DNA from: Deferribacterales bacterium
GTDB lineage: Bacteria > Chrysiogenota > Deferribacteres > Deferribacterales > Geovibrionaceae
Assembly: GCA_050253335.1 (NCBI GenBank)
Contig: JBFWJG010000054.1
Location: 1 to 13,640 of the forward strand
Direction: 5' to 3'
Length of the DNA: 13,640 nt
Part shown: positions 2,665-13,640 of the stretch, one piece after another
Numbering within the stretch: position 1 is the stretch's first letter
Layout: each line of letters opens with the position of its first letter
Notes under the pieces: model-generated
The model's input: the letters and a program-made list of their open reading frames with translations, nothing else
The model's database searches: none
What the model was told of the DNA's origin: nothing
Position numbers and translations under genes: made by a program

Positions 2665-3729
2665 TTAAAAACCTAAGCTGAGTGTCACAACGTGTCTCTC
2701 ATCCTCAAGCTGTCCTGCGTATGCGCCAAGCTCTTCCTGATAGTAAGCGTAGTCAAGCGTTATGAAACGAAGATCCACGCCGAAGCCTGCCGTGAAGTAA
2801 CCCTGATGCAGACCGGTTCTGAGCGCGAGGGCTTTCCATTTCGCCTGTGCGCCGAGGTTCATTCTTTTTGCTATGTCGCTGTCCTGATCATTAGCCTGAA
2901 GCACATCCCTTAAATCGGCAACGAAGTCCGTGGAAACGGGGCCGAACTTGGGTGAGTATGCAACGGAAAGATTCAGTGTCGTTTCAAGGTCTTTGGCGTC
3001 TCCCATGTCTGCTGTGCCTATATTATTGACGGCAGCGCCCACCCTGAGGTTTGATGTGTCCTTGGGGGTTATATTGTAGATAACGCCCACATTCGCGAGA
3101 ATGCCTGTTCCTTCCTCAAGGTCGTCTTCGATTATCTGGTCAAAGTCGTCGCTTGCTATGTCCGCAACAGAGTAAGTCTCGCTGAGGCTCTGCCTGTTCA
3201 TAAGGATTACGCTCACGCCCACATCAAGCTTGTCGCTCATGAATGAGCGTGACATCCCGCCGATCACGCCGTAGTCAATAACAGCGTCCGCGTCAAGCTC
3301 CGGGAACATTCTGTTTCTGGCTATGCCTGTAACCTGCGCGCTGGCGAAAACGCCGAGAGAGAAGTTCTTTCTGTAGTATGCGGGGAAGAATGTGCCGTTG
3401 AAGTTCTGATAATCGCCTATGATATCACGGAGAAAATCGGCAACTTCCGCTTCATCGTCCCAGTCCGTGTCGCTGTATGCGTTTTTATTGTCCTGAAGAT
3501 TTTCGTTCGCGCCTATCTGAAGGTTCAGTATGCTCCATCTGGATTTGTCTATCCTCGCGAGTCCTGCGGGGTTGTAGAAAAGAGTGTACTGATCCTCGCC
3601 CATTGCGTAGTAAGCGTCACCCATGCCGAGTGCTTTTGTTGAGCGGACTATGGATGGATATTCCAGAGAAGCCGCGAACAGAACCGAGGGCAGTATGAGC
3701 ACTGTTAAAAGAATAAGCAGTTTTTTCAT
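2665..3729 (-). CDS. Outer-membrane beta-barrel protein, FadL/PorV/TraF_2-like
   Basis: Signal peptide MKKLLILLTVLILPSVLFA. N-terminal STKALGMGDAYYAMGEDQYTLFYNPAGLA motif typical of the FadL/PorV/TraF_2 clan. Alternating amphipathic strands and a C-terminal beta-signal ending in Phe (HVVTLSLGF). Confidence 0.85.
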   Translation of the reverse strand: MKKLLILLTVLILPSVLFAASLEYPSIVRSTKALGMGDAYYAMGEDQYTLFYNPAGLARIDKSRWSILNLQIGANENLQDNKNAYSDTDWDDEAEVADFLRDIIGDYQNFNGTFFPAYYRKNFSLGVFASAQVTGIARNRMFPELDADAVIDYGVIGGMSRSFMSDKLDVGVSVILMNRQSLSETYSVADIASDDFDQIIEDDLEEGTGILANVGVIYNITPKDTSNLRVGAAVNNIGTADMGDAKDLETTLNLSVAYSPKFGPVSTDFVADLRDVLQANDQDSDIAKRMNLGAQAKWKALALRTGLHQGYFTAGFGVDLRFITLDYAYYQEELGAYAGQLEDERHVVTLSLGF

Positions 3730-4574
3730 TATATTATCCCCCCGACTATTACGTTGTTGATATAGCTTGCAATATCAGCGGCATTATATGTGTTTTCGGG
3801 AGCTTCCTGATCAAGATCGTTGAGGAATTCTTCGAAGTCTTCCTTGATGTCGCTGGTGTCGCCGCCTTTGACGCTGGTGAAAACATCAATGGCGCCGGAT
3901 ATTGCCGTGAGGTCTCTGTCTATGCGGGCGTTTGCTTCTGCTTCGTCATTTTCAGCGCTCGCGTTGTTAACAACATCCTGAGTGAGAACCACAGCGCCGT
4001 TGAGAGCTTCCGTGATGCCTTCCTCAGTGAGTGTGAGGGAATCGGCGCCGCTGACGTCAAGAACGGTTTTCGCCACGATAAGGGTTATGTCCAGTGCGCC
4101 CAGGACACCTTTCATGGTTTTTACGTCCTTGTCTGCGGAGTTGTCGTCAAGTGCGTTGAAAGCGTTTTCTATCTCTGTAAGGTAAACTGAGATCGCAATG
4201 GATGCAGCCGCTCTGTCGGATGTTGAGCCTGCCGGATCCGCGAGGATTTCATCTCCGCCGAATATGGATGCTATAACATCGAAGGTGTCGAGATCCGTGT
4301 CTGCGACTTCAATAAGGTTGATGAAGTCCACATTGACTCTTCCGAGGTACGCTGACGCAAGGTAGACCTGTTCCTTGGGCGTAAGATTGGATTTTGCGGA
4401 AAGTTTTGTGATGACGTATTCATAATTGCCGTCATCAAGCGAGGTCTGAATTTTGAATTCCTCCGCCTCGCTGCTGCTGTCATCCGCCGCATCCTCGAAA
4501 AGGTTTGTGCCGCCGCATCCCGTAAAGGTAAGAGCAAGCAGCAGAATACTGAGAAGTACTGCCAGTTTTTTCAT
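3729..4574 (-). CDS. Acidic, predicted helical lipoprotein of unknown function
   Basis: MKKLAVLLSILLLALTFTGC lipobox. AAGGGG RBS upstream. Stop overlaps the barrel start (TAATG at 3727-3731). Confidence 0.85.
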   Translation of the reverse strand: MKKLAVLLSILLLALTFTGCGGTNLFEDAADDSSSEAEEFKIQTSLDDGNYEYVITKLSAKSNLTPKEQVYLASAYLGRVNVDFINLIEVADTDLDTFDVIASIFGGDEILADPAGSTSDRAAASIAISVYLTEIENAFNALDDNSADKDVKTMKGVLGALDITLIVAKTVLDVSGADSLTLTEEGITEALNGAVVLTQDVVNNASAENDEAEANARIDRDLTAISGAIDVFTSVKGGDTSDIKEDFEEFLNDLDQEAPENTYNAADIASYINNVIVGGII

Positions 4575-6941: not shown

Positions 6942-8582
6942 TTACCCGTTCAATTCTTCGAGCACCCGCAGTATCTCGGGCAGAAGCTGTTTCTTTCTGG
7001 AGAGAACACCGGGCAGGTCGAAGCAGAAATCCTCGGTTCTGTTATAGGCGAGTATTTTCTCCGCCGCCTCAAAGCCTGTGGTGAGAAGTATGCTTTTCTC
7101 CATGATTATATCTGTCACAAGAAGCATTCCCCAGTCCAGTCCTTTTTCGGAGGTATTTTTCTTAATCTCTTCAAGCAGTGTTTCCTTGACTTCATCCATC
7201 TCCTGAAGGGTCACGACTTCCACCTGACTTATGCCGACCTTAACCCCGTATTCCTCGTATATCTTGAAGTCGGTGTTGATGATGCCTTTAGGTTCTCTGG
7301 TTTTGAGGCTGTCCGTGGCGGAGAAGATCTCCACTCCGTATTCCTCGTAGTTTATTCCTGCAGTCTCCGCCAGAGCCGTCACTGCCCGCTTGTCCTCTTC
7401 CGTGGTTGTGGGCGATTTAAGAATGACGGTGTCGGACAGTATGCCGGAAAGCAGGATGCAGGCTGTTTCCCTGTCTATCTCAACTCCGTTTATTATATAC
7501 TGCTGATAGACAAGGGTGCAGGTGCTCCCCACCGGTTTTGCGAAGAAGTGTATGGGTGTTTTGGTTTTTATTGTGCCTAGCCTGTGATGATCCACAATCT
7601 CATGGATCAGCGCCGTCTCTGCACCGTCAACCGCCTGCGAGAGCTCGTTGTGATCCATGAGGATCAGCCCTTTCTGAGTTTTTTTGATGAGATCGGAGCG
7701 GGTGATAATGCCTATCAGCCTGTTGTCCCGCAGAACGGGAAGCCCTTTATGGTCAATCTGAAGAAGCTTTTCCTTAACCTCTTCCAGATAATCGCTTTCG
7801 TCCACTGAGGGGATGTCTGTTTTCATCACAGCCTTTGTGGGTATGCTGAGCTGGAGGCGGCGCACTGTTTCGGCAGTGTCCAGTTCGGAAATGAAAACCC
7901 AGCCTTCATAGCCTGAGAAATCAAGATCCACATCGCTTTCATCCCTTATTCCCGTGAGGATTATGGCGGGGAGCTGGCTTTTCACCGCGTATTCGATTAT
8001 GTCCCTTCGTTTGCCGACTATAAGCACTATGTCTTTTGATTTCTGAAGCTCCATTCTCGCCCTGAATCTGTCATAGGGCATGGCGCCGATCATCACTGTC
8101 GCCTTGAACTCTTCCTTTTTTCCGCGGACATAGTTATACCCGCCTATGACCTTTTCAAAGTTTTCCGCCCTGAAATGAAATACGGGCTTTGTGGTTACAT
8201 CTTTTGTAGCTAGGAAGTCCGAAAGCTCGAATATGCTTACTATCCCCTTGAAAACATTTCCGCCCTCAACGACAGGAGTGATGCGGATTTTGAGCTCGTC
8301 TATGTTTCTGATTACGCCGAAAAGCGGTTCGTTTTCGTTCAGGGCAATGACCTGTCTGGTCATGACATCGCTCACGCGGGGGTAAACGTCTTTTATGAAA
8401 ACAGGGGGTGTTACGCCGAATTTATCGAATATGAATCTTGTCTGTTTGTTCAGGTTCCCGCACCTTGCGGCTGTGTATATATTTTCCGGAGCAAGCCTGT
8501 TTTTGAGCTTTGCGTATGCGTATGCCGAGGCTATGGAATCAGTGTCGGGGTTTTTATGCCCCACAACGTATATTTCAGGCAT
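6942..8582 (-). CDS. ppaC: Family II Mn/Co-dependent inorganic pyrophosphatase with CBS-DRTGG-CBS insert (CBS-PPase)
   Basis: GHKNPDTDS, DHNE, DHH, ILSDT and C-terminal SRKKQ motifs, with a central CBS/DRTGG-like insert. ATG at 8582 (MPEIYVVG) follows GAGGTGG; 546 aa. Confidence 0.95.
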   Translation of the reverse strand: MPEIYVVGHKNPDTDSIASAYAYAKLKNRLAPENIYTAARCGNLNKQTRFIFDKFGVTPPVFIKDVYPRVSDVMTRQVIALNENEPLFGVIRNIDELKIRITPVVEGGNVFKGIVSIFELSDFLATKDVTTKPVFHFRAENFEKVIGGYNYVRGKKEEFKATVMIGAMPYDRFRARMELQKSKDIVLIVGKRRDIIEYAVKSQLPAIILTGIRDESDVDLDFSGYEGWVFISELDTAETVRRLQLSIPTKAVMKTDIPSVDESDYLEEVKEKLLQIDHKGLPVLRDNRLIGIITRSDLIKKTQKGLILMDHNELSQAVDGAETALIHEIVDHHRLGTIKTKTPIHFFAKPVGSTCTLVYQQYIINGVEIDRETACILLSGILSDTVILKSPTTTEEDKRAVTALAETAGINYEEYGVEIFSATDSLKTREPKGIINTDFKIYEEYGVKVGISQVEVVTLQEMDEVKETLLEEIKKNTSEKGLDWGMLLVTDIIMEKSILLTTGFEAAEKILAYNRTEDFCFDLPGVLSRKKQLLPEILRVLEELNG

Positions 8583-8647
8583 CTGCGCCACCTCTGTAAA
8601 AATAATTCTGAACGATAACAGGGAATATCTGTTAACGCAAGCGGACA

Positions 8648-9103
8648 TCAGTAAAAAATTCTGTCGAGTTCTGCTTTTCTGTAAGCGAATATTTCTTCCA
8701 GTTTTTTCCTGACATAAAGAGCGTGTGCCAGCCTTCCGAAGAGTCCGAACGGGAGAATATAGTTCACTGTGTCGGTCATTTCCGTTCCTTTGTCGGTTTC
8801 TCTGAAGGCGTGCTGATGGTGCCAGAATTTGTATGGCCCGAATCTCTGCTCATCCACAAAGAAGAAAGGCTTCTCCGCATGGGTGATTTCCGTGACCCAC
8901 TGAACGGGAATGCCGCCGAAGGGGGTTATGGTGTAGCGGACTATCATTCCGGCGTATGTCTCGGGAGGGAGTTCTGTTCTGACTTTAAAACCCAGCCAAG
9001 GCGGGGTAATGTCCGCCAGTCTGGCGGGATCGCCGAAAAAGTCCCACGCTCTGTTTATATCCACAGGCAGAGTCTGCGTTCTCACAAGTGTATAAAGCTT
9101 CAA
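8648..9103 (-). CDS. SRPBCC (START/Bet v1-like) family protein
   Basis: AWDFFGDPARLADITPPWLGF, FVDEQRFGPYKFWHHQHAF and IFAYR motifs. TTG at 9103 follows GAGGTG (9109-9114 on the - strand). Confidence 0.88.
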   Translation of the reverse strand: MKLYTLVRTQTLPVDINRAWDFFGDPARLADITPPWLGFKVRTELPPETYAGMIVRYTITPFGGIPVQWVTEITHAEKPFFFVDEQRFGPYKFWHHQHAFRETDKGTEMTDTVNYILPFGLFGRLAHALYVRKKLEEIFAYRKAELDRIFY

Positions 9104-9322: not shown

Positions 9323-9781
9323 ATGAGGCAGTATTTTATCCGCCATGCCCATGCGGAAGAAAGGCATGAATGGGAAGGGGACGATATGTCCCGTCCGCTC
9401 ACGGAAGAGGGGAAAAGGAGGATGGAGCTTGCCGCGCGGAGGTTTTTTTCCGTTTATCCCGCTCCGTACCATATAATAAGCTCCGAGGCGGTTCGCGCCG
9501 TGCAGACTGCGGAGATTCTGTGCGCCGTGACAAAAGGCAGTCTTGTCATTGAGCCTCTCCTTAACCCGGGAGCGGATATAGCCTTCTGGCTTGAAGCCGT
9601 GAAGAAGCATCCCGGAGGTTCCACCACGGCCTTTGTGGGGCATGAACCGGACATGACGGAGTTTCTTTCGTTTTATTTATCGGGAAACTCCATGGAGCTT
9701 GTGCTTAAAAAAGGCTCGATATGCCATGTGGAGAACAGGCATCTTATTAACCTTGTTCAGCAGAAACTGCTGACATATTAG
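9323..9781 (+). CDS. sixA: SixA-like histidine phosphatase
   Basis: YFIRHAHAE (RHx motif), DMSRPLTEEG, SSEAVRAVQTA, VGHEP, LKKG. ATG at 9323 follows AGGGTG. Confidence 0.88.
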   Translation: MRQYFIRHAHAEERHEWEGDDMSRPLTEEGKRRMELAARRFFSVYPAPYHIISSEAVRAVQTAEILCAVTKGSLVIEPLLNPGADIAFWLEAVKKHPGGSTTAFVGHEPDMTEFLSFYLSGNSMELVLKKGSICHVENRHLINLVQQKLLTY

Positions 9782-9791
9782 GACAGATATT

Positions 9792-11282
9792 TTGAAAAAT
9801 CTTACACTTGCTTGTGTGTCTTTCTCTCCGGATGAATTTTGTTCCTTCACCGGCTGGAATCTGCGGCAGGAGAACGCCTGCTGTCCTGAGGAATCAGGTG
9901 TTCTTCTGGATACTTTCGACTGGCTGCTCTGGAAGGCGGACTGTGTCCTCTTTGCAGGGCCGCCCCTTGCCGCCCTTTACAGAAACGGCAAAAGAATCAC
10001 TGCGGAGATTTCCGCAATTCCCGAAACCTATGAGGATATCCCTGAAGGCAGGCTCCGTGATCTGGTGCGGATAAACACCTCTCCGAGGGTGCTTGAGATA
10101 AAAGCCGAATGTACTGTGAAAACAGATTATTTCAGCGTGACAAACGAGGACGGCAAAACAGTCTGCCGGATAAGGCTGAGCTCTGCGGAGGTGAATGCCT
10201 TCTCATGCTGCTTTGCGGAGATTATTCCCCTGAAGGGCTACGGCGGAGAGGCGGCGTTTGTTCAGGCTGCTCTGGAAGATCAGAGTGGTAGGGAAACACG
10301 GAGAAGCCAGCTCGCTTACGCATTAAGGAAGTCCGGACTCAGACCCGGAGCCTATAAAACAACAGCGGAGGCCGACTGCACGCCGGACACGCCTGCGGGT
10401 GATGTTCTGCGGAGTATTCTTCTTCAGCTTCTGGACATCATGGAAATGAATGAGGCGGGGGCTGTGCGGGGGCGTGATCCCGAGTTCCTCCACGATTTCA
10501 GGGTCGCGCTGAGACGTTCCAGATCTGCTTTCAGCATGTTTAAGGGTGCTTTCCCGCAGGAGGAGCATTCATATTTCCGTGAGAAGCTTTCGGAGCTTTT
10601 CTCCCGCACGAGCCTTGCGAGGGATCTGGATGTTTATCTTAAAAAGATACAGGAATACAAAGACCTTCTGCCGGATGACATGCGCGGCGGTCTGGCGCCT
10701 GTTGAAAGATATCTGATCCGCTACCGCAGGAAGGAGCATGAACGGATTGTCTCCCTTCTGGGTTCCGCGGAGTATGCCGGCCTGAAAGCGGAGTGGAGAA
10801 GCTTTCTCACCCATGAAACACACACGGAAGAGGGCGGGCGCAGTGTGCGGAATTCCGCGCGTGAAGTGATAAAAAAGGCTTACGGCAGAATATATAAGGC
10901 CGGAAGGCGGCTGCACGGAGAGAGTCCGGCGGAGGAGATACACAGAGTGCGGATCTCCTGCAAGAAGCTCCGCTATGCTCTGGAGTTTTTCAGGCCTTTG
11001 TTCCCTGTGAAGGAAACAGACACGGTGACCCGAAAGCTGAAGCGGCTTCAGGATGCTCTGGGGGCTCATCAGGATTATGAGGTTCAGCGGGAAAAACTGC
11101 TGTATTATACCGAAGAGGCGTCAAAAAAGCTTAAAAATAAGGCCGTACTGCCGCTTGCGTCAGGCTATCTTGCCCGTTATCTGGACGAGCTTCAGAAAAC
11201 TGAAAGGGAAAAATGCCTTGAACTGATAGATGATTTTGTCTCCGTGAAGATGCGCGGACTAATAAATGAGATGCTGAAATAA
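9792..11282 (+). CDS. CHAD-domain polyphosphate-binding protein with degenerate CYTH-like N-terminus
   Basis: CHAD motifs DPEFLHDFRVALRRSRS, ARDLDV, IHRVRISCKKLRYALEFF and LKRLQDALGAHQD. N-terminal LLDTFDWLL. TTG start 10 bp after the sixA stop, with AGGA at 9780-9783. Confidence 0.9.
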   Translation: MKNLTLACVSFSPDEFCSFTGWNLRQENACCPEESGVLLDTFDWLLWKADCVLFAGPPLAALYRNGKRITAEISAIPETYEDIPEGRLRDLVRINTSPRVLEIKAECTVKTDYFSVTNEDGKTVCRIRLSSAEVNAFSCCFAEIIPLKGYGGEAAFVQAALEDQSGRETRRSQLAYALRKSGLRPGAYKTTAEADCTPDTPAGDVLRSILLQLLDIMEMNEAGAVRGRDPEFLHDFRVALRRSRSAFSMFKGAFPQEEHSYFREKLSELFSRTSLARDLDVYLKKIQEYKDLLPDDMRGGLAPVERYLIRYRRKEHERIVSLLGSAEYAGLKAEWRSFLTHETHTEEGGRSVRNSAREVIKKAYGRIYKAGRRLHGESPAEEIHRVRISCKKLRYALEFFRPLFPVKETDTVTRKLKRLQDALGAHQDYEVQREKLLYYTEEASKKLKNKAVLPLASGYLARYLDELQKTEREKCLELIDDFVSVKMRGLINEMLK

Positions 11283-11300
11283 GCAATACGGAGCTGGCTG

Positions 11301-12041
11301 ATGAAGATAATGGCTGTTTACAGCATAAAAGGCGGAGTAGGCAAAACCGCGGCGGCGGTTAATCTGGCTTACTGCGCGGCAAAAAGCGGAATGCGGACGC
11401 TTCTCTGGGACTTTGATCCGCAGGCGGCCTCCACGTTCTATTTCCGTGTTAAGCCGAAACTGAACAAAAGCATGAAAAAAGCTGTTCAGGGGAAAAGCGA
11501 CCTTGAGGCGGAGATAAAAGCCACTGATTTTGAAAATCTGGATATAATCCCGGCGGATTTTTCCTGTCGGAACATGGATCTGTTTCTGGATGCGGCGGAT
11601 AAGCCTAAGAAAGCTGTCCGTGATATGTTCAGGAGCGTAAGCGGGGACTACGATCTGGCAATAGCCGATGCCCCGCCGGGGATAACCCTTCTTTCCGAAG
11701 GGATAATGAGAGCGTCCGATGTGATAGCCGTTCCGCTCATACCGACCACACTTTCACTGCGCACCTGCGAAATGCTCCTTGGTTTCCTGAATGAGAATAA
11801 AATGAAGGATATCACCCCCGCTCTGTTTTTTTCCATGGCGGACAGACGCAAAAAAATACACCGTGAAGTTATGGATGGTGCGGAGTTTGAGGGAGCAAAG
11901 CTCCTTGAAAACCATGTACCATATTCCGCTGATGTGGAGAAAATGGGCATCCACCGTTCTCCTGTGGGCGTGTTCAGTCCTAAGAGCAGGGCGGCCGCGG
12001 CTTATGAGAATATCTGGCGGGAAATTGTAAATATTTTGTAA
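11301..12041 (+). CDS. ParA/Soj-family ATPase (orphan)
   Basis: Deviant Walker A KGGVGKT, DFDPQ, DIIPAD and Walker B IADAPP. GGAG RBS at 11290-11293. Confidence 0.93.
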   Translation: MKIMAVYSIKGGVGKTAAAVNLAYCAAKSGMRTLLWDFDPQAASTFYFRVKPKLNKSMKKAVQGKSDLEAEIKATDFENLDIIPADFSCRNMDLFLDAADKPKKAVRDMFRSVSGDYDLAIADAPPGITLLSEGIMRASDVIAVPLIPTTLSLRTCEMLLGFLNENKMKDITPALFFSMADRRKKIHREVMDGAEFEGAKLLENHVPYSADVEKMGIHRSPVGVFSPKSRAAAAYENIWREIVNIL

Positions 12042-12056
12042 AATCATCTTAAAGGG

Positions 12057-12084
12057 GTTACAAACACCGTTATTGTAATATAAT
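12057..12084 (+). promoter_or_regulatory. Putative sigma70 promoter upstream of ppx
   Basis: Perfect TATAAT at 12079-12084 with a weak -35 (GTTACA, 12057-12062, 16-bp spacer), 42 bp upstream of the ppx ATG. Confidence 0.4.
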
Positions 12085-12126
12085 GTTACTCATACAAATT
12101 TCGTAATTCCGGGGTAGTCTGCGTCA

Positions 12127-13640
12127 ATGTTAGGAAACGGAATAAACATAGCCGTGGTGGATATAGGAAGCAACACCGTCCGCCTTCAGGTTTCACAGGT
12201 TAAGGATAAGAGCTACAGGGTTCTTGAGGAATATAAGGAATCCGTGCGCCTCGGCGACGAGGTGTTCGAATTCGGAATGATTACGGAGCCAGCCCTCGCA
12301 AGGCTTTTGCAGAGCCTCAAAGAGGTGCGCGCGATAATAGACAACTGGAAGGTTCATCAGGTGCGGGCTGTGGCAACAGCCTCGTTCAGGGCGGCCTCCA
12401 ACTACAGCGAAGTTATTCAGAAGGTAATGGATGTCTGCGGCTTCGGCGTTGAGATAATCAGCGGCGAGGAGGAGGCGCGCTATACCTTCATAGCGGCTTC
12501 GGCAAATTTTGAGATAAGCAAGTACCACGCCCTTGTGCTGGACATAGGCGGCGGCAGTGCCGAATATTCCATTGTTAACAGAGGCAAACTGGAAAAAGCC
12601 CACAGCCTTGAACTCGGCTGCAACAGGCTGACAAAGATGTTTTTTAAAAGCGATCCTGTGAGCAACTCCGAATATCAGACGGTTAAGGATTTCCTTGTGA
12701 AAGAAGTGCGCAGGCTGAGGCTCCCCAAGTCCATCGATCTTGTAATCTGCACCGGCGGCTCAATGGGCAACCTCTCGACGATTCATTACCTGTCTGGAGG
12801 CCAAAGGGCAGACAGGACAGTGAAATACCTTGAGCGCAAGCATCTTAAAAAACTGATAAACGACATAAAAAATAAAACCATAGAAGAACGCAGGCAGATG
12901 CCCGGCATGGAAGAGAAAAGAGCGGACATTATCCTCGCCGCCGCCATGCAGGTGGACGCCGTTCTGGAAGAGACCGACGGCGAAGGGCTCTACACCCTCA
13001 GCGGAGGGTTGAGAAGCGGGCTCACCATAGACACCATAAACAAGATGGGGCTTGAACTCCCTTTTCAACAGAATATGGACAACATCCGCCATGCGAGGCT
13101 TATCGAGATAGGCAACAAGTTCACCTTTGAGGAGCGCCACGCAAGACAGGTTACAAAACTTTCCAAAAAGCTTTTTGACGGGCTCTGCGCGGAACTCGGG
13201 CTTCAGAAAGGGGACTGGCCCGTGCTTGAGGCCGCCTCCCTCCTGCATGACATAGGCAACTATATTTCATACTCCAAGCATCATAAGCATTCGCAGTATC
13301 TTATAATGAACTCCGACCTCATGGGCTACAGCCATGAGGAGATAAACATGATCGGCAACATCGCCAGATACCACCGCAAAAGCCCTCCCCGCTCATCCCA
13401 CAGGCTTTTTAAGATGATGAGCGAGACAGAGCAGCACAAAACAGCGGCCATGAGCGCCGTTCTCCGCGCGGCGGACGGGCTGGACAGGTCTCACAAATCA
13501 CTTGTGAAGGATGCTGAAGTCACAGTCAAACCAAAGAAAATTGAGATAAAGCTTGTTTCCGAGCACAACCTTTCCCTCGAAAAGAAAAAGTTCGGGATGA
13601 AAAAGGATCTTCTGGAAGAGATAAGCGGGAAGGAGCTGAT
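12127..13640 (+). CDS. ppx: Ppx/GppA exopolyphosphatase with C-terminal HD domain, 3' end outside window
   Basis: Not in the ORF track; translated by hand from ATG 12127. MLGNGINIAVVDIGSNTVRL, ESVRLG, AVATA, ISGEEEARY, DIGGGSAE, RADII, then LLHDIGNYISYSKHHKHS, ARYHRK and ADGLDRSH. Frame stays open to the window end. Confidence 0.95.
   Translation, partial: MLGNGINIAVVDIGSNTVRLQVSQVKDKSYRVLEEYKESVRLGDEVFEFGMITEPALARLLQSLKEVRAIIDNWKVHQVRAVATASFRAASNYSEVIQKVMDVCGFGVEIISGEEEARYTFIAASANFEISKYHALVLDIGGGSAEYSIVNRGKLEKAHSLELGCNRLTKMFFKSDPVSNSEYQTVKDFLVKEVRRLRLPKSIDLVICTGGSMGNLSTIHYLSGGQRADRTVKYLERKHLKKLINDIKNKTIEERRQMPGMEEKRADIILAAAMQVDAVLEETDGEGLYTLSGGLRSGLTIDTINKMGLELPFQQNMDNIRHARLIEIGNKFTFEERHARQVTKLSKKLFDGLCAELGLQKGDWPVLEAASLLHDIGNYISYSKHHKHSQYLIMNSDLMGYSHEEINMIGNIARYHRKSPPRSSHRLFKMMSETEQHKTAAMSAVLRAADGLDRSHKSLVKDAEVTVKPKKIEIKLVSEHNLSLEKKKFGMKKDLLEEISGKEL

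Follow-up and report, generated by a model that had tools for sequence, protein, structure and literature searches.

Which task falls to a ParA-type ATPase whose gene stands among genes of polyphosphate metabolism? The question is raised by a 13,640-nucleotide stretch of DNA from a Deferribacterales bacterium (GenBank assembly GCA_050253335.1, contig JBFWJG010000054.1), called the window here, which is the entire contig C54 of its genome (G000). Four open reading frames (ORFs) on the + strand encode a SixA-like phosphatase, a CHAD protein (phosin), a ParA-like ATPase, and a Ppx; the ORF calls place gaps of 10, 18, and 85 bp between them and bear out the co-oriented arrangement given in the preliminary description of the locus. 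The CHAD and ParA genes form a real, widespread, and functionally unstudied module of two genes. Its functional tie to polyphosphate is well supported when granule positioning, granule remodeling, and a reversal of the two roles are taken together. That the pair spaces or tethers polyphosphate granules is given a probability of roughly 45%; granule positioning is the likeliest single role, and granule remodeling is its main rival.

The ATPase gene (11301..12041, + strand) encodes 246 residues with an AAA_31 domain (E value of 1e-32) that pass no named NCBIfam cut-off; among named relatives, that of Limisalsivibrio acetivorans is closest, at 63%. A profile built from 61 relatives delimits a clade whose members score at least 232 bits, while three outside matches score at most 163 bits. 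In a quick tree of 132 rows, clade members from different phyla intermingle above a long stem and group with moderate support (Shimodaira–Hasegawa-like approximate likelihood ratio test of 82). Seven evenly drawn samples give the distribution of the clade. Counted with the center genome of each sample, carriers make up 14 of 68 genomes in the bacterium's own phylum, 26 of 201 in Gammaproteobacteria, 10 of 201 in the phylum of Trichloromonas (which we take to be Desulfobacterota), 12 of 201 in Actinomycetota after removal of 3 low-scoring matches, 4 of 201 in Alphaproteobacteria, 10 of 151 in Acidobacteriota, and 3 of 151 in the phylum of a Myxococcales genome. Cultured carriers include Paracoccus, Methylomonas, Nitrosomonas, and Thalassobaculum.

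The gene that accompanies this ATPase is usually one for a CHAD protein. With the seven center genomes left out, CHAD lies directly upstream of the clade ParA in 52 of 72 carriers from six bacterial phyla (11/13, 18/25, 7/9, 5/11, 2/3, 7/9, and 2/2 in the order of samples above), and of the remaining carriers, one has a neighboring CHAD gene on the other strand and another sits at the end of its contig. The best 80 of 558 GTDB matches comprise 65 adjacent to CHAD, 1 beside a CHAD fragment, 2 at edges, and 12 unlinked, and a search with the CHAD domain of the window alone returns 64 of the same 80 loci. Among the best 80 of 588 metagenome matches, many of them close kin, 73 are adjacent, 6 are at edges, and 1 is unlinked. 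The adjacency is far beyond chance, and a 4-bp overlap joins the two genes in 125 of the 168 pairs over all loci. Presence and absence also go together within genera of the own phylum, where two genomes (G023 and G026) have both genes and two (G024 and G025) have neither; G024 reads sixA-ppx-ppx2-ppk1, with the CHAD-ParA pair cleanly missing. A test of 10 among the 12 unlinked GTDB genomes showed a full-length CHAD of the same subfamily elsewhere in every one. In Gammaproteobacteria, a match to the CHAD alignment is found in 23 of 26 carriers versus 28 of 175 other genomes, and ppk1 in 25 of 26 versus 88 of 175, in tallies where kin are not independent, small genomes inflate the contrast, and G114 is counted as a CHAD and ppk1 genome without ParA. 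The neighborhood survey and phylogeny proposed in the preliminary description thus yield a ParA clade that is tied to CHAD and to ppk1.

The CHAD gene (9792..11282, + strand) begins with TTG and encodes a predicted polyphosphate binder of 496 residues, with PF05235 at residues 209-436 (E value of 1e-58). Its model, with a predicted local distance difference test (pLDDT) score of 92, consists of a beta-rich N-domain of CYTH/TTM fold (about residues 1-190) and a long helical CHAD domain (about 200-496). Foldseek returns Chlorobium CtCHAD first (6qv7 and 6qva, root-mean-square deviation of 1.8-1.9), followed more weakly by CYTH enzymes (E value of about 2e-3). CtCHAD scores 315 bits on the subfamily alignment versus 135 bits for a plant CHAD, which places it in the same subfamily as the window protein. 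CtCHAD (Q8KE09) was crystallized with polyphosphate and binds it with dissociation constants of 1.9 uM and 147 nM (PMC6537752). The six CtCHAD residues mutated in the same study, His253, Arg256, Arg260, Arg296, Arg418, and Tyr419, correspond to His234, Arg237, Arg241, Arg277, Arg394, and Tyr395 of the window protein, and they are kept in 57-58 of 58 partner proteins. Subfamily membership and the kept residues together make polyphosphate binding by the window protein a strong inference from its sequence, in support of the role first ascribed to it, and its family suggests that the protein sits on polyphosphate granules in vivo. The N-domain is likely catalytically dead, as the ExExK metal-binding motif of the family occurs within the first 60 residues of 0 of 58 partners. 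The partner consensus also holds no conserved basic N-terminal peptide. We know of no cellular job for CHAD proteins beyond polymer binding.

The partner of CHAD has the features of a predicted intact ATPase. Lys10, Lys15, Asp37, Asp39, and Asp123, which make up the deviant Walker A, A′, and Walker B motifs, are invariant in 239 of 239 clade sequences, so every catalytic motif is kept. The model (pLDDT 86.9) has the Soj/MinD fold, and its top Foldseek matches are Soj/ParA proteins with template modeling (TM) scores of 0.83-0.84. It ends at the last core helix, with no C-terminal membrane-targeting helix of the MinD/FlhG kind, and the C-terminal tail is at most 5 residues in 183 of 247 sequences. 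The surface that would contact DNA is altered in part. Arg183, the equivalent of Soj Arg189, lies within a DRRK patch and is Lys or Arg in 231 of 239 sequences; Arg188 is basic in 159 of 239 and Lys228 in 135 of 239. A loop at residues 47-66, part of which is modeled with low confidence, carries a median of 7 Lys/Arg and 0 Asp/Glu in the clade versus 0-2 Lys/Arg in six outgroup proteins. Covariation over 155 ParA-CHAD pairs gives one outlier (z of 7.4), with the rest close to controls.

The window supplies no partition system of the usual kind. A Pfam scan of its 13 ORFs detected no parB, minC/E, flagellar, or chemotaxis family, and no parS-like site is present in the window at up to 3 mismatches from the consensus, in agreement with the preliminary description. 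A canonical parA-parB pair is found elsewhere in the genome on contig C6, parS-like sites are present on contig C2, and the genome also encodes an FlhG-like protein and, near chemotaxis-like genes, one that is ParA-like (labels read from the sequence). With these functions housed separately, the window ATPase is a true extra.

The preliminary description had also taken sixA and ppx as fixed parts of a four-gene positioning machine, and this part was not supported. Of 160 loci, 11 have a SixA-like gene within 3 kb, and ppx is near the clade ParA in 5 of 80; relatives without ParA keep sixA-ppx-ppx2-ppk1, and ppx has a promoter-like site of its own. Over the same distance, ppk1 occurs at 7 of the 160 loci and a gene for a PstS-like phosphate-binding protein at 6, and no gene beyond the pair is conserved. 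Since sixA and ppx vary and no third gene is conserved, what is left of the machine is a pair of genes within a polyphosphate cluster. SixA and Ppx are members of that local cluster and stand outside the positioning core; sixA is conserved in the polyphosphate cluster of the own phylum and not in the module at large.

At loci without the usual partner, the neighbor is often still related to polyphosphate: a short CHAD (3 loci), ppk1 (1 locus, G273, where the clade ParA follows 2 bp behind), or a fused CYTH domain. Among 27 long relatives, 6 have a Pfam CYTH match (P0132, P0143, P0192, P0203, P0207, and P0221, about 500-545 residues) and five more align with them; of eight ParA-CYTH fusion loci, seven follow CHAD and the eighth stands at the edge of its contig. 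Fusion loci L149-L154, L173, L186, and L188 still stand behind a CHAD gene, and some of the fused CYTH domains have an intact E-x-E-x-K-like start while others are degenerate. One clade ParA (P0174), a single sequence on a single contig, is fused to a sucrose-phosphate phosphatase (HAD) domain. In two gammaproteobacterial loci (L280 and L281), a PIN-PhoH gene, another phosphate-related neighbor, immediately precedes a short CHAD and ParA. On Paracoccus plasmids the order is small gene-CHAD-ParA-CYTH-NUDIX. The small gene encodes 62 residues, overlaps the CHAD start (L271:3299-3487 and L272:3288-3476), and is absent from the window; it is possibly a lineage-specific regulator or adaptor.

How would such a pair handle granules? 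ParA/MinD ATPases usually position cargo together with a partner protein, as a review describes (PMC11407121), and CHAD would be the partner of this one. In the granule-positioning model, the CHAD protein would coat granules made by Ppk1, and the ATPase, predicted to dimerize on ATP, would bind a polyanion matrix. That matrix would be nucleoid DNA, reached via the DRRK patch, and possibly also polyphosphate, reached via the extra basic loop. On meeting CHAD-coated granules, the ATPase would then hydrolyze ATP and let go, so that granules would stay apart and be inherited, as McdAB achieves for carboxysomes. A stronger version of this model, tentative at present, would see in the module, found in at least six phyla, a partition machine driven by ATP and dedicated to polyphosphate granules, the first of its kind, with a rebuilt polyanion surface that reads both DNA and polyphosphate and with a phosin of dead CYTH domain and CHAD as its ParB-like activator.

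Several observations weigh against granule positioning. Two residues of the HpSoj DNA patch, Lys227 and Lys230 (PMC6393308), are replaced in the window by Tyr208 and Asp211, positions that are basic in 0 and 2 of 239 sequences; with two of four Soj patch positions not basic, nucleoid binding and a strictly McdAB-like mechanism are both uncertain. Among genomes with CHAD, the clade ParA is missing from 17 of 31 in the own phylum and from 28 of 51 in Gammaproteobacteria. No CHAD was detected in the genomes of carriers G273, G124, and G318, the last of which also has no detected ppk1, and carrier G703 has no match to the CHAD subfamily. In five carriers from a single actinobacterial branch, CHAD matches are limited to weaker ones elsewhere in the genome. 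Nine of the 10 unlinked genomes that were tested belong to one Methylococcales-type branch, and the ten are therefore not independent. No conserved small adaptor gene was found near the pair in the 160 loci. Phosin deletions often have little effect (PMC6537752). Finally, Synechococcus elongatus spaces its granules without a ParA system (PMC13081873) and Pseudomonas aeruginosa does so with AlgP (PMC11894788, PMC9239181), so the CHAD-ParA module is at most one solution to granule spacing.

The altered DNA patch and the new basic loop leave room for two other models. The ATPase may be a granule-bound switch that binds polyphosphate through the basic loop and spends ATP on putting the CHAD coat on or taking it off, or on controlling the access of Ppk1, Ppx, or CYTH, and thereby sets granule size and turnover. 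The basic character of loop 47-66, partly low-confidence as it is, the loss of half of the Soj DNA patch, and neighbors that vary among polyphosphate-handling domains (CHAD, ppk1, and fused CYTH, with separate CYTH and NUDIX in Paracoccus) all speak for such a switch. It is nevertheless the less likely role, as the equivalent of Soj Arg189 is kept in the DRRK patch, the closest folds are chromosome-partition Soj proteins, and cargo positioning is the commoner role in the ParA/MinD family (PMC11407121). The roles could also be reversed, with CHAD-coated granules as a landmark or matrix from which the ATPase places or anchors a different cargo, for instance part of the chromosome or a complex of enzymes. 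An altered DNA patch next to a putative new polyanion-binding loop would suit this arrangement, as would granules that are nucleoid-bound and affect nucleoid structure, a property described in PMC13081873 and PMC11894788. However, the pair has no conserved third gene and no other cargo is thereby indicated, which makes the reversal improbable.

A fourth account needs no shared function at all: the pair would travel together as a mobile cassette, and the role of the ATPase would be unrelated to polyphosphate. The distribution is patchy in all seven samples, with phyla mixed on the tree, 20 of 72 carriers do not have the ParA directly behind CHAD, and one plasmid copy has no CHAD nearby. This account is nonetheless the least probable of the four and very unlikely, given that the 4-bp overlap is kept at a median identity of 54% for ParA and 34% for CHAD, that both genes are retained when unlinked, that matches to the clade ParA number only 9 among 72,556 plasmid records and none among phage records, and that the tie to ppk1 is strong.

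Comparison with known systems places the module between partition ATPases and phosins. It resembles McdA-McdB in that an orphan ParA-type ATPase without a membrane tail is encoded next to the binder of its presumed cargo. The partner here is a CYTH-fold/CHAD protein of about 500 residues, whereas McdB is small, and the cargo would be an inorganic polymer granule, whereas that of McdAB is the carboxysome. In sequence, the ATPase is closer to Soj than to McdA (119 versus 58 bits). It shares with the Soj/ParA proteins of chromosomal ParABS (8ray, 2bek, and HpSoj 6iub/8jmj) the fold (TM of 0.76-0.84), the deviant Walker A, A′, and B motifs, and the Arg189 equivalent. It differs from them in that no parB or parS is nearby while the genome has its own parAB, in having Tyr and Asp at Lys227/Lys230 and an extra basic loop, and in the stretch PxQCEYYALEG, which reads PTTLSxRT in the clade. 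Among phosins (CtCHAD, PptA, and YgiF), the window protein belongs to the CtCHAD subfamily with its binding residues kept, and unlike YgiF it has a CYTH-fold N-domain without ExExK. AlgP of P. aeruginosa and PhaF share with the module the outcome of granule spacing on the nucleoid; they are passive, histone-H1-like tethers with no ATPase.

A related gene order is already in print. Two papers draw a folD-ppk-parA-CHAD cluster in Acidithiobacillus; they take its parA for a gene of plasmid or chromosome partition and propose no role in granules (PMC10892726, PMC6416229). The likeness, parA beside CHAD and ppk1, is one of published gene labels, and the CYTH domain of that cluster is reported as catalytically conserved, whereas the N-domain of the window is degenerate. 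A literature search confined to main texts found no proposal of a CHAD-ParA machine for polyphosphate granules and no paper that links a phosin to an ATPase partner. A term search of a 2024 review of ParA/MinD cargos gave no mention of polyphosphate (PMC11407121).

The remaining features of the locus concern the cluster around the pair. The accessory SixA-like gene (9323..9781, + strand) belongs to the histidine phosphatase family (His_Phos_1 in Pfam) and scores 55 bits on TIGR00249 (sixA), below the cut-off of 74.5. The accessory ppx (12127..13640, + strand) is cut by the contig end and encodes a long-form Ppx/GppA phosphatase with Ppx-GppA, domain III, and HD domains; its catalytic motifs are present, and it scores 244.6 bits on TIGR03706, below the cut-off of 307. 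In the parA-ppx gap lies a promoter-like −35/−10 site (12057..12084, + strand) with a 16-nt spacer and a 10/12 match to consensus. Such sites occur in the scan at chance level (4 found versus 3.0 expected); similar hexamers are present in all 4 same-genus sequences aligned and not in a fifth from another genus. The site may let ppx-ppx2-ppk1 be transcribed apart from sixA-CHAD-parA.

The last 227 nucleotides of the window (13414-13640) match positions 1-227 of contig C48 at 219 of 227 positions, and all 8 mismatches sit within the first 101, which suggests a strain mixture in the assembly. Beyond the overlap C48 carries a second, motif-less ppx and then ppk1, and the cluster of the window probably continues there; sixA-CHAD-parA-ppx-ppx2-ppk1 is uninterrupted in a single-contig genome of the same genus. 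The second gene, ppx2 (C48:234-1751), is Ppx-like without the catalytic EEA and GGGS motifs and possibly encodes a pseudo-enzyme regulator. The trio ppx-ppx2-ppk1 is kept in the relatives examined. In Lacticaseibacillus, a Ppx is reportedly required for polyphosphate accumulation, according to a preprint. Two genes upstream of the cluster, a divergent gene (6942-8648, − strand) encodes a DHH-DHHA2 protein of the family II pyrophosphatase type that contains CBS/DRTGG, in the same position as in the one same-genus genome checked. Farther off (2665-4574, − strand), two adjoining genes of 354 and 281 residues have no Pfam match; one product resembles an outer-membrane barrel and the other an acidic lipoprotein.

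To our knowledge, no dedicated ATPase is known for the organization of polyphosphate granules. The spacing and inheritance of these granules in bacteria are called unresolved in a 2026 paper (PMC13081873). Most sampled ppk1 genomes are without the module, which for that reason cannot be a universal answer. It singles out one ATPase and one partner, residues that can be tested, and carriers in culture, and it is a variant of the ParA/MinD theme of ATPase and partner with a probable new cargo. If the granule-positioning model is true, it would add a new class of cargo to ParA/MinD biology, give phosins a function, and provide a two-gene tool to place phosphate stores.

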